A stretch of DNA of 64,000 nucleotides, from contig CM075987.1 in NCBI GenBank assembly GCA_038087875.1, positions 25,360,001 through 25,424,000 on the forward strand, read 5' to 3'. Both the position numbers and the translations under genes were made by a program. Origin of the DNA: Malacoraja senta. Lineage: Eukaryota. The notes under the pieces are model-generated. The model was not told the origin of the DNA and searched no databases. It saw only the letters and a program-made list of their open reading frames with translations. Shown in pieces: positions 6,574 through 38,733 of this stretch. Within the stretch, counting starts at the first letter, position 1, and every line of letters begins with the position of its first letter.

Positions 6574-7367
6574 TCTTCTTCTTCTTGCGTATGGTGTGCA
6601 CAGCCTAAAGTTGCAAGTCAACTTGTTCTATTTGATCTATTTGTTTGTGCACGTTGGGTTGATTGCATTAAAGCGGGCATGCAGGTGCAGCAGGCAGTGA
6701 AGAAAGCGAATGGTATGTTAGCATTCATAGCAAAAGGATTTGAGTATAGGAGCAGGGAGGTTCTACTGCAGTTGTACGGGGTCTTGGTGAGACCACACCT
6801 GGAGTATTGCGTACAGTTTTGGTCTCCAAATCTGAGGAAAGACATTCTTGCCATAGAGGGAGTACAGAGAAGGTTCACCAGATTGATTCCTGGGATGTCG
6901 GGACTTTCATATGAAGAAAGACTGGATAGACTCGGCTTGTACTCGCTAGAATTTAGAAGATTGAGGGGGGATCTTATAGAAACTTACAAAATTCTTAAGG
7001 GGTTGGACAGGCTAGATGCAGGAAGATTGTTCCCGATGTTGGGGAAGTCCAGAACAAGGGGTCACAGTTTAAGGATTAAGGGGAAATCCTTTAGGACCGA
7101 GATGAGAAAAACATTTTTCACACAGAGAGTGGTGAATCTGTGGAATTCTCTGCCACAGAAGGTAGTTGAGGCCAGTTCATTGGCTATATTTAAGAGGGAG
7201 TTCGATGTGGCCCTTGTGGCTAAAAGGATCAGGGGGTATGGAGAGAAGGCAGGTACAGGATACTGAGTTGGATGATCAGCCATGATCATATTGAATGGCG
7301 GTGCAGGCTCGAAGGGCCGAATGGCCTACTCCTGCACCTATTTTCTATGTTTCTATGTTTCCACCCC
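6574..7367 (-). mobile_element. Second copy of the ribozyme-headed ~140-bp retroposon, disrupted by a CR1 insertion
   Basis: 6574-6670 is the reverse complement of the 35190-35285 body and (GAA)n tail. 7359-7367 is the reverse complement of its 5' GGGGTGGAA. An 11-bp TSD ATCATCGTGCT lies at 6563-6573 and 7368-7378. Confidence 0.88.
6671..7358 (+). mobile_element. CR1-clade LINE 3' fragment (young; uninterrupted ORF2 C-terminus to stop at 7266)
   Basis: VKKANGMLAFI..LVRPHLEYCVQFWSP..IEGVQRRFTRLIPG..RRLRGDLIETYKIL..RTRGHSLRI..FTQRVVNLWNSLP, then a (TTTCTATG)n tail. Confidence 0.96.
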
Positions 7368-33408: not shown

Positions 33409-33999
33409 TTTCTTTACTGCTTTTTAACAGTAATCAGAAACTATTTAAGCAGTCCTCAGATTTTCACATCGACAAAGCCCAACAAGTTATTAGATGAAGA
33501 AAATTTAAAAAAACTGCAGATGCTGGAAATTCAGAAGAAGAAACAGAACTAATGTTTCAAGTTGAAGGCCCTTGATCAGAATTTGGAAAGTCCACGGGTT
33601 TTCGACCTAAAATATTAACTCTATTTTCCTTTCTGCCCTGCTGAAAGTTTCCAGTACTTTCTGATAATACCTTGCAGCAAAGTCTTTCACCATTCAAGAA
33701 AATGTGGATTATTTCTGTTCTATATTTTTACTCATCTGAAAAACATTTCAGAAGTTTCAGGTTTAAGATGCAGGAACTGTTAACAAAGATGCACCACAGA
33801 TTTTTCAGACACTTCCTTGATCTGTAATCCTTGAGAAATAAAACTGTTAACACATTATTTGATTTATATTTTGTGCTGTAAGTTGCAGCTTCAGGCTGAT
33901 CCTGAAAAATGTACATTTGCTGGAGAATAAAAGGACATTCCTTCAGGAAGGAGATGAGGAGGAAATAAACAAAACTAAAAAGGTCCTCAGTGTTGTGTA

Positions 34000-35117
34000 C
34001 ATCACCGGACATACAAAGTGGAATCAATAAGGCTAGGGTGGTGTTTAACATGCTCAGGAAGATCTGGAGCTCAAAACACATCGCAATCAACACCAAAATA
34101 CGCATCTTCAACTCAAATGTGAAACAGGTGATGCTGCATGGATCAGAGACATGGAAAACTACAAAACACACCACAAACAGGCTGCAAACATTCACTAACA
34201 TCTGCCTTAGGAGAATACTTAACAGCTGGTGGAGAGACAAAGTAAGCAATGTGGACCTGTGGAAAAGAACAAGCCAGGAGCCCATTGACTTACAAATTCG
34301 AAGGAGAAAATGGAATTGGATTGGACACACCCTCAGGAAACCTGCCACAAACATTTCCCGGCAAGCCCTGAATCTTCTGAATCTTCTGAATTTGTAGTCG
34401 GCAGGGCAGTACTCTGCATATCGCCAACTTGGATGTGTTGTGCATACTAACATGTTGTTAGTGCCCCCTTAAAACTGTCTAGTGAAGGTGATTTGACTAT
34501 ATTGTCTAGTTTATTCCATTCCCTTAAGGTTCTTACAAAGAATGAGTTCTTATAAATATCTGTCCTGGCGAATGGGGTTTCTATTTGCATATAATTTCTC
34601 TTTCTTGTTCTCCTTTCTGTTGAGTATGTGATGTATCTATCTGCAGTTATGCCCACCATCCTCTTTTGAATCTTGTACAACATGGCTAGTCTTGTTCCTT
34701 GCCCTTCTTGTTTCCAGCATTTCCAACCCCAGGTCGGACAGCATCTGGGTGACACTGCTACCTCTATTGTAGTTCCTGATGCCAAAGCGTGCTGCTTTCC
34801 TCTGTATCCCTTCTAGTTTGTTGATATGACCAGTTTTGTATGGGTCCCAGGCGCATGAAGCATATTCCAGTAAGGGTCTAACCAATGTTGTATATGCTGT
34901 GGTTTTCACTTCCATTGGGAAATGGAACCCCCAAGGAAAAAGGAAAAGAGGTCGCCCCAGAAACAGCTGGAGAAGAGGTGTCCCGACAGAAATGTCTGAG
35001 AGTGGGCTCAACTGGGGAGATCTCGAAAGAACTGCCAACAACCCAGTGAGGTGGAGGACATTTGTCAATGGCCTATTCTCCCTAGAGGAGCAAAGGGCTT
35101 AAGAAGAAGAAGAAGAA
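34000..35117 (+). mobile_element. RTE-clade LINE 3' fragment, split by a nested LINE
   Basis: INKARVVFNMLRKIWSS..TKIRIFNSNVK..GSETW..LRRIL..RRRKWNWIGHTLRK..RQAL [insert] WNPQGKRKRGRPRNSWRR..RWRTFV..*, then a TAA(GAA)n tail. Confidence 0.94.
34371..34918 (-). mobile_element. L2/CR1-group LINE 3' fragment (Daphne/Crack-like; clade uncertain) nested in the RTE
   Basis: TAYTTLVRPLLEYASCAWDPY..LEGIQRKAARF..SSVTQMLSDLGL..RLAMLYKI..YKNSFFVRTLREWNKL..SLDSFKGAL*, with a (CAGAAGATT)n tail and one frameshift. Confidence 0.85.
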
Positions 35118-35145
35118 ACATGTCCTCTGATCAGCAGAGTTCAAA

Positions 35146-35199
35146 GGGGTGGAAGATTGCAACCTTCACGTGGTCCGCCCTGTTTCGACTAATGCAATC
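35146..35199 (+). ncRNA. Predicted minimal HDV/CPEB3-like self-cleaving ribozyme (54 nt)
   Basis: P1 GGGGUGG/CCGCCCU (G1.U wobble), P2 GAUUGCA/UGCAAUC, P3 ACC/GGU, L3 UUCACGU, J1/4 GU, vestigial P4 UUCGA, J4/2 CUAA with catalytic-position C35189. Confidence 0.88.
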
Positions 35200-35285
35200 A
35201 ACTCGACGTGCACAAACGGAAGATCAAATAGAACAAGTTGTCCAACAACTTTAGGCTGTGCACGCCACACGAAAGAAGAAGAAGA
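35146..35285 (+). mobile_element. ~140-bp non-autonomous retroposon with 5' HDV-like ribozyme and (GAA)n tail
   Basis: 13-bp TSD AGCAGAGTTCAAA at 35133-35145 and 35286-35298. A second copy with the same 5' end lies at 6574-7367. Confidence 0.9.
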
Positions 35286-35724
35286 AGCAGAGTTCAAACA
35301 TTTCTGGAAACGATACAATTGTCGAACATTTGATAACTGTGTAATTAGTTAATGAGTTGAATGTAGCCTTTCCGTCACACGTATATTCCCCAAAGGGTAA
35401 ACTCAAATAGGATTTGTATAAGAAATGAAAGCACTTCTTGTGGGAAAAGAGCCTAAAGTGCAAACCGTTGAAATCTGCAATTTAATTAGATTGAATACAA
35501 CAGTTTAGAAATCAAATCGCTGAAAGAAACATTGAAGACGCACATAAAGTAAATGATTTGAGTTAAAAATAAACTCCATTGAAAATTTACATGATGTAAA
35601 AATGATGCTTAGTCAGCAGTCAATATAAACTGATCTTGCAAACCCAAGCTGTCAGTTCTCTGCCAAGAGAGATGATCGTTACTGCAAACTTTCTTCCTTC
35701 AGTTGAAACATGTCAAGGTTGCAC

Positions 35725-38209: not shown

Positions 38210-38733
38210 CAGCCAAACACAGATTAGAGGAACAGCATCTCATAGTTTGCTTGGGCAGCTTACACCCCAGCGGTATGAACATTGATTTCTCCAACATCAA
38301 GTAACCATTGCTCCCCTCTCTCTCTCTGTATCCCACCCCCACCCTAGTCATCGTACTAGTTTCACTGTCGTCCTGTTGAGTTTCACTGCCTGTAACTCGT
38401 TATCACCTACCCCACAGCCAGCAATGGACCATTGTGGGCTCCACCTTTCCTTGATCATCGTTGTTTTTTTCCACATCTTTCATTCATTTGTCCTATCTTC
38501 TTCTTCTTAAGCCCTTTGCACCTCTAGGGAGCATAGGCCATTGACAAATGTCCTCCACCTCACTGGGTTGGTGGCAGTTCTTTCGAGATCTCCCCATTGG
38601 TCCTATACAGCTTCTATATCTCCCATTTCCCAATTCCCCCGACTCTCAGTCTGATGAAGAGTTCTTGACCCGAACCGTCACCTATTCCTTTTCTCCAGAG
38701 ATGCTGCCTGTCCAGCACTTTGTTGACTATCTT
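38210..38733 (+). mobile_element. Penelope-like 3' fragment
   Basis: RLEEQHLIVCLGSLHPSGMNIDFSNIK*, 3' UTR and CTGATGAAGAG..GAACCGTC motif. Confidence 0.85.
38497..38599 (-). mobile_element. Short 5'-truncated RTE copy
   Basis: Reverse complement of 35010-35115 including the (GAA)n tail. TSD GTCCTAT at 38490-38496 / 38600-38606. Confidence 0.88.

Follow-up and report, generated by a model that had tools for sequence, protein, structure and literature searches.

Organization of the element

The window analyzed in this study is a 64,000-nt stretch of the Malacoraja senta genome (contig CM075987.1, positions 25,360,001 to 25,424,000, forward strand), which lies within an assembly of 1.94 Gb. At nt 35146–35285 of the window, a 140-bp unit, here called the element and regarded as a putative ribozyme-headed retroposon, was located between two perfect 13-bp target site duplications (TSDs; agcagagttcaaa). 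It consisted of a 127-bp body, which leaves no room for an open reading frame (ORF), and an (AAG)n tail. The positions of its parts and of a second copy are listed in Table 1.

Table 1 Features of the element and of its second copy in the window
Feature	Position (nt)	Strand	Basis or remark
Left TSD, 13 bp	35133..35145	+	Same sequence as 35286-35298
HDV-like ribozyme head, 54 nt	35146..35199	+	Descriptor script, Rfam match, adaptor-joined RNA 5′ ends at 35146
Linker and 5′ half of the 3′ domain, origin unassigned	35200..35236	+	Outer-stem strand 35207-35214 inside
3′ module common to repeat family X	35237..35272	+	Pattern search and L059:48-95 alignment; carries 3′ strand of inner hairpin and outer-stem strand 35257-35264
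(AAG)n tail	35273..35285	+	Tandem Repeats Finder
Right TSD, 13 bp	35286..35298	+	Copy of 35133-35145
Second copy, old subfamily, 5′ part lost or disrupted	6574..6680	-	Window comparison; locus L031

Short interspersed elements (SINEs) are recognized by a head of the RNA polymerase III (Pol III) type derived from tRNA, 7SL, 5S or small nuclear RNA (snRNA), and no such head was possessed by the element: ARAGORN detected no tRNA in nt 35000–35450, and none of the tRNA, 7SL, 5S and snRNA families of Rfam gave a match at E values up to 10 on either strand. The second copy in the window (nt 6574–6670, minus strand) shared 87.6% identity across unit positions 45 to 140; it had kept the inner stem with a different loop, while its 5′ part had been lost or disrupted. 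An initial annotation of this DNA had described the 140-bp unit with its perfect duplication, the lack of a convincing pair of tRNA A and B boxes, and the second copy with its altered loop, and all of these were found as described.

In the 3′ half of the body, the outer-stem strands CGTGCACA (nt 35207–35214) and TGTGCACG (nt 35257–35264) flanked AAGTTG..CAACTT, and the minimum-free-energy fold of this half was the outer stem together with the inner hairpin. Thus, the body stems proposed in the initial annotation were present, but their stability was no better than that of shuffled sequences (z -1.48, not significant; 14 of 200 shuffles were equally stable). The linker and the 5′ half of this domain showed no match to the sampled RTE or L2-like sequences.

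The predicted HDV-like ribozyme head

The first 54 nt of the element possessed the full nested double pseudoknot topology of the hepatitis delta virus (HDV) ribozyme, comprising 17 base pairs, as identified by a descriptor script. P1 had 7 bp (GGGGUGG/CCGCCCU, nt 35146–35152 with 35175–35181) and a G1.U pair at its base; it was followed by J1/2 (AA, nt 35153–35154), a P2 of 7 bp (GAUUGCA/UGCAAUC, nt 35155–35161 with 35193–35199), a P3 of 3 bp (ACC/GGU, nt 35162–35164 with 35172–35174), and an L3 of 7 nt (UUCACGU, nt 35165–35171). A G residue (nt 35182) directly after P1 stood opposite a C in L3; P4 was vestigial (UUUCGA, nt 35183–35188); and J4/2 was CUAA (nt 35189–35192), with C35189 as the candidate catalytic residue. 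The features expected of an HDV-like ribozyme, namely the nested P1/P2/P3 pseudoknot, a G.U pair opening P1, and a cytosine in J4/2 (whose catalytic role is that of a candidate), were therefore all observed.

With the descriptor anchored at base 1, 200,000 dinucleotide-shuffled versions of the first 70 nt yielded the fold 12 times. The sole Rfam ribozyme match of the unit at E values up to 10 on both strands was HDV-F-prausnitzii, the entire model of which aligned to the stretch between base 1 and the 3′ limit of P2 (16.0 bits, E = 1.3); with the old-subfamily copy (see below), it was the only match of any Rfam family (17.5 bits, E = 0.41). The J4/2 sequence CUAA was the same as that of the HDV-F-prausnitzii consensus and aligned to GCUAAG of the model. 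The fold, the shuffle test, and this weak match support an HDV-like anatomy of the head, which the initial annotation had taken for a ribozyme. A metagenome scan with the head gave no match.

Copy number, ends and subfamilies

A genome search with the unit as the query returned 1412 first-look candidates, and of the 40 that were scored, 32 were 100% and 8 were 99% identical to the query, nearly all at full length. With the second window copy as the query, 2914 candidates were obtained, which represented an older subfamily with the same head and 95% to 98% identity to the query. When every genomic occurrence with no more than two mismatches was counted, the head motif was present 10,042 times, the mid-body motif 10,417 times, and the 3′-end motif 10,748 times, compared with 1, 28 and 0 times, respectively, for the reversed patterns that served as controls. 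The family thus comprises about 10,000 copies per 1.94-Gb genome, in keeping with the high copy number that had been guessed from two copies in 64 kb. Since the 3′ motif also occurs in another repeat family, family X (see below), and its count therefore includes members of that family, 5′-complete copies make up no less than 93% of the family, with about 96% as the more likely figure.

The exact first 60 nt were found in 29 of 30 sampled loci, each straight after unrelated flanking sequence and with visible TSDs. Among 49 distinct copies, 39 had an exact TSD of at least 5 bp abutting G1, mostly of 11–13 bp; by eye, 8 of the remaining 10 had a TSD that was imperfect by a single mismatch or by a small number of additional bases at the junction, and two (L002 and L034) were ambiguous. 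TSD lengths ranged from 5 to 14 bp among the copies, and tails varied from 6 to 74 nt with a median of 12 (39 copies). The first base of the TSD was a purine in 33 of 36 cases, a bias confounded by the purine tail. TSDs and tails of this kind are typical of target-primed reverse transcription. These findings support the view that the element is a retroposon of high copy number, discrete and non-autonomous, whose copies have uniform 5′ ends and are flanked by TSDs. Heterogeneous 5′ ends, or extension upstream into a longer element, had been named beforehand as the observations that would speak against such a family; instead, the 5′ ends were uniform and the TSDs abutted base 1.

Two subfamilies were distinguished: a near-identical young one, whose members diverged by 0.03% from their own consensus (n = 29), and an older one diverged by about 3.6% (n = 26), in a sample biased to the best hits. 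The family is apparently still active. The two consensus sequences differed at 11 positions (10 substitutions and one insertion), and 10 of these differences fell at positions unpaired in the ribozyme-plus-hairpin model, whereas the eleventh turned a U-A pair of P1 into U.G. With 62 of the 127 positions paired, the chance of at most one difference in paired positions was about 0.007 by a binomial estimate. Because the 3′ structure had been derived from this very sequence, this sparing of the helices is supportive rather than strong evidence that structure may be under selection.

In sequencing runs filed under eight organism labels (12 studies), 90% to 100% of 10 sampled 31-mers of the element were present. 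As a lead from 31-mer sampling alone, this suggests that the young subfamily is common to several species.

RNA reads from the element

Four RNA runs (X12 and X22 to X24) were aligned to nt 35000–35420. Unaligned letters directly before nt 35146 were carried by 509 reads of the single-cell run X22, with a further 37 such reads at nt 35147. These letters had as their consensus (agreement 0.68) a single constant sequence of 30 nt that was non-genomic and had GGG at its end, which we take to be a template-switch oligo; this consensus was absent from the other listed sites of loose read ends in the element. Because the full adaptor, including its own GGG, stood before the GGGG of the element, the reads argue for a true RNA 5′ end at G1 rather than invasion of the adaptor at an internal G run. 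RNAs of the element start exactly at the predicted cleavage site. Sense reads exceeded antisense reads 3- to 9-fold in this run. Loose poly(A) ends were found behind nt 35267, 35271 and 35274 (53, 61 and 136 reads, respectively); these may reflect oligo-dT priming on the A-rich tail and hence do not define the 3′ end of the RNA.

In two bulk oligo-dT runs, read depth was about 600–800 on the element versus 0–10 in both flanks, and 89% to 92% of the aligned reads continued into unlike sequence; therefore, the copies are mostly embedded in longer transcripts. The bulk libraries appear unstranded and are thus uninformative about cleavage efficiency. An extra AA behind nt 35263 was observed in 131 of 778 reads of X23 versus 9 of 674 reads of X24, and probably stems from one highly expressed variant copy. 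In run X12, a metatranscriptome contig (record 2) aligned to nt 35146–35268 of the window; in it, unit positions 1–68 led directly into position 1 of another unit, making the contig a partial head-to-tail dimer.

Relationship to family X and to RTE and other LINEs

Two 3′ ends of an RTE-clade long interspersed element (LINE) lie in the window, at nt 34917–35117 (plus strand) and nt 38497–38599 (minus strand). As noted in the initial annotation, both finish in (GAA)n, which is preceded by ...GGGCTTAA; in the former copy, the TAA of the ORF stands directly at the tail. This RTE 3′ copy (nt 33980–35117) was split at about nt 34374–34916 by about 540 bp of unrelated sequence, behind which the ORF resumed.

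That the adjacent RTE mobilizes the element through the common (GAA)n/(AAG)n tail, as had been proposed, appears unlikely. Of 70 sites that carried at least (AAG)4, 17 belonged to RTE and 52 to the element, making 69 in all, in a set of loci that was chosen for both families and is thus biased. The two share the type of microsatellite, whereas SINEs that depend on RTE are recognized by 3′ homology to it, and a comparison of the unit with 30 loci, covering about 2 kb of RTE 3′ sequence, revealed no similarity beyond the tail; the lack of homology between the body and the RTE 3′ end, also remarked upon in the initial annotation, therefore holds. Furthermore, the best non-duplicate RTE pairs were about 95% identical (29 copies), so that the sampled RTE copies stand at least 5% apart, versus 99% to 100% identity for young copies of the element; the longest open frame of RTE was 440 amino acids (aa), and no intact ORF was present, among the best-scoring 150 of 2155 candidates; and the 3′ module of the element was shared with a different family.

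This family, designated family X, emerged from a pattern search in which 199 matches carried unit positions 101–120 behind a different, recurrent upstream sequence, mostly that of family X. Its similarity to the element covered unit positions of about 92 to 127, a stretch of about 36 nt, together with the (AAG)n tail; one copy was located at L059:1-95, of which L059:48-95 aligned to the 3′ module. Searching the genome with family X gave 623 first-look candidates, the best 40 of which had 95% to 97% identity and reached the 5′ end of the query, while a metagenome scan with it gave no match. An open frame of family X ran into a TAG inside the common part; being 19 codons long, it proves nothing. 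By its shared sequence, family X, which may be a LINE or another short element, represents the best lead to a partner, better than the neighbouring RTE, and the 3′ module is likely the recognition site for the reverse transcriptase of the partner. The initial annotation had suggested looking for a full-length LINE that begins with the same ribozyme or ends with the same 85 nt; no LINE beginning with this ribozyme was found (see below), and at the 3′ end family X is the candidate, having the last 36 nt or so and the tail in common with the element.

Several other candidates were rejected. Locus L091 (G000:C1:20849450-20853950), which resembled a parent LINE with the head, 3.3 kb of sequence and the body, was an old copy of the element split after the ribozyme by a nested 5′-truncated L2/CR1-like LINE of 3.26 kb. 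A 4-nt repeat, AATC, was present at its inner junctions and its outer TSD was GCTAGTTGGCC; the junction between head and LINE occurred once in the genome. An intact LINE copy, L092 (G000:C2:44372500-44378200, minus strand), aligned only to the inner part of L091 and had a different 3′ end and tail of its own; it encoded an ORF1 of 286 aa with a GDSL/esterase-like end and an open ORF2 of 1014 aa. This L2/CR1-like LINE, which has an endonuclease, a reverse transcriptase and the GDSL-like end of ORF1, looks recently active, with the 1014-aa open frame in about 20 of 57 scored copies (303,209 first-look candidates); it was discarded as a partner on account of its differing 3′ end and its (ATGGTTAT)n-like tail. 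Two further loci in which the head seemed joined to foreign sequence were a disrupted copy with no ORF (L093) and an ordinary copy with an insertion or deletion (L094). A second RTE lineage (L095; G000:C1:16058600-16059300, minus strand), encoding an RTE-like protein 43% identical to that of the window RTE, was dismissed since the stop of its ORF was followed at once by (GTAA)n. Likewise, no LINE or other family was found to have the body from about position 61 onward in common with the element; the search gave 5 hits, all of them damaged copies of the element.

Comparison with known ribozyme-bearing retroelements

The closest counterparts in design were the R2 and R2/R1 hybrid short internally deleted elements (SIDEs) of Drosophila, which the paper that named them sets apart from Pol III SINEs and calls rare (PMC3414825). 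Hybrid SIDEs derive their ribozyme from one element and their 3′ end from another, and the central part is described as having no identifiable origin (PMC3414825). The element of Malacoraja likewise combined a predicted 5′ ribozyme with a 3′ end likely to be bound by LINE machinery and had no ORF, so that the likeness to internally deleted, ribozyme-bearing R2 derivatives drawn in the initial annotation is apt (PMC3414825). SIDEs are described as residing at fixed sites in ribosomal DNA (rDNA), being cut from the 28S co-transcript, and having few copies and known parent LINEs (PMC3414825). In contrast, the element was dispersed with TSDs at about 10,000 sites, its predicted ribozyme, at 54 nt and with P4 all but absent, was far smaller, and the search for a parent LINE with that ribozyme found none.

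NARTc, RIME and SIDER of trypanosomatids resemble the element in being dispersed and non-autonomous and in carrying an HDV-like ribozyme (Pr77) within the first 77 nt or so (PMC4035085, PMC3383444). According to the same sources, the Pr77 head is common to a LINE and also serves as a promoter, the parent L1Tc/ingi having the same head (PMC4035085, PMC3383444). The element differs in its animal-sized host genome and in that no parent LINE with the same head was detected. A review lists HDV-like ribozymes at the head of RTE, baggins and other LINEs, with the same proposed role of freeing retroelement RNA from a co-transcript, although these hosts are autonomous (PMC6765202); it also mentions that ribozymes of the hammerhead or HDV-like type are employed by some non-autonomous SINEs (PMC6765202). 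Schistosome hammerhead SINE-like elements and metazoan retrozymes are described as short non-coding retroelements with a small self-cleaving ribozyme, as in the element, but of the hammerhead class and with tandem or circular RNA, those of schistosomes being transcribed by Pol III (PMC6765202, PMC7761336).

With regard to the ribozyme itself, the L3 heptamer TTCACGT was the same as that in a primer for the mouse Cpeb3 ribozyme, in which it is given as 18 nt from the cleavage site, about the same distance as in the element (PMC10919898). The near absence of P4 recalls the P4-less "minimal" HDV-like ribozymes (PMC10879173). CPEB3 is described as an intronic ribozyme present in one copy, whereas the minimal ribozymes originate from metagenomes and phages (PMC10919898, PMC10879173). 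The likeness to the element concerns the heptamer and the near loss of P4 and does not demonstrate kinship; the CPEB3 family of Rfam gave no match to the element at E values up to 10.

Nature of the element and proposed mode of propagation

The structure, copies and transcripts suggest that the element is probably a ribozyme-headed, SIDE-like, non-autonomous retroposon of the non-long terminal repeat type, in which a predicted self-cleaving ribozyme takes the place of a promoter. In the mode of propagation envisaged, copies would be carried along passively in longer transcripts, of host or read-through origin; the first 54 nt would fold as a minimal ribozyme of the HDV type (delta-like) that cleaves immediately 5′ of G1; and the freed RNA would begin exactly at the first base of the element. 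An autonomous LINE would then provide, in trans, a reverse transcriptase that recognizes the 3′ module (the last 36 nt or so) and the (AAG)n tail; at a nicked target, target-primed reverse transcription of the RNA by this enzyme would give rise to full-length copies with TSDs of 5–14 bp and tails of variable length. Three of these points are inferred: that the RNA cleaves itself, that passive transcription supplies the template RNA, and which element acts as the partner. Of the trans-mobilized, ribozyme-processed retroposon envisioned in the initial annotation, the discrete non-autonomous nature and the ribozyme head are retained, the latter with an HDV-like anatomy and with RNA 5′ ends at the predicted cleavage site, while the RTE partner is not.

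Several observations weigh against this interpretation. Used without anchoring, the descriptor is loose, matching unrelated genomic sequence about once per 5–10 kb and (GT)n runs massively; the weight of the fold therefore rests on its coincidence with the first base of the element. The HDV-F-prausnitzii scores of 16–17.5 bits compare with a gathering threshold of 44, and no Rfam family reached gathering anywhere in the window; these families being narrow, such scores lower the case for membership in the Rfam HDV families and not that for the fold. The nested-fold energy of the whole body was unremarkable (z +0.20; 114 of 200 shuffles were equally stable). As copy-to-copy variation amounts to neutral decay, evidence from covariation is thin, with one pair-preserving change. 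In the two bulk runs, no site with many molecule starts or ends passed the test, and hundreds of reads crossed nt 35146 into unlike flanks. A parent LINE with the same ribozyme was not found either: an exact 22-mer from the 3′ end of the head joined to non-element sequence gave 18 hits, none of which was a LINE 5′ end, in a search that would miss a diverged ribozyme. Finally, an RNA 5′ end at G1 fits cleavage and equally fits a transcription start.

The last point leads to the alternative of an ordinary Pol III SINE with a degenerate internal promoter, in which G1 would be the transcription start and the ribozyme-like fold incidental. The adaptor-joined 5′ ends at nt 35146 would be accounted for equally well, and by eye two stretches of the head partly resembled the box A and box B consensus at a plausible spacing. 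This explanation is nevertheless improbable, given that neither ARAGORN nor Rfam detected a head of the Pol III type, that the anchored HDV fold was so rare among shuffles, and that the differences between the subfamilies spared the helices. A head acting as both promoter and ribozyme, as described for L1Tc Pr77 (PMC3383444), may also be envisaged. Least credible of all, to the point of being almost negligible, is that the unit is a fragment of a longer element (a truncated LINE 3′ untranslated region) or a chance repeat with no special head, since L091, which at first resembled a 3.4-kb LINE starting with the head and ending with the body, was a nested insertion with a junction unique in the genome, since the head and body motifs were counted in near-equal numbers, and since TSDs abut base 1 of the copies.

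Within the preferred interpretation of a ribozyme-processed retroposon, a further possibility, which is speculative and rather doubtful, is that the element represents a free-standing "ribozyme-SINE" lineage with no LINE parent, in which a minimal CPEB3-like delta ribozyme was captured as a substitute for a promoter and about 10,000 copies still move on read-through transcription; such elements could then be a source from which single-copy host ribozymes, e.g., mammalian CPEB3, were recruited.

Novelty and implications

The design as such is known from SIDEs and from NARTc/SIDER; new are its dispersed, high-copy and apparently active form, the near-minimal ribozyme, and the absence of a detected parent. 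In the literature, searched apart from Repbase and Dfam, no description of a family headed by an HDV-like ribozyme was found for cartilaginous fishes, including sharks, and no report of a high-copy family of such design in a vertebrate-sized genome. Ribozyme-headed non-autonomous retroposons have so far been those of fly rDNA, with few copies, and of trypanosomatids. For annotation, the element serves as a warning that short repeats lacking a Pol III head may be ribozyme-processed. If the interpretation given here is true, a promoter-free strategy can succeed at genomic scale in an animal, a natural and very small eukaryotic HDV-like ribozyme would be at hand, and the family would provide a concrete candidate for the type of ancestor from which host-recruited ribozymes arose.
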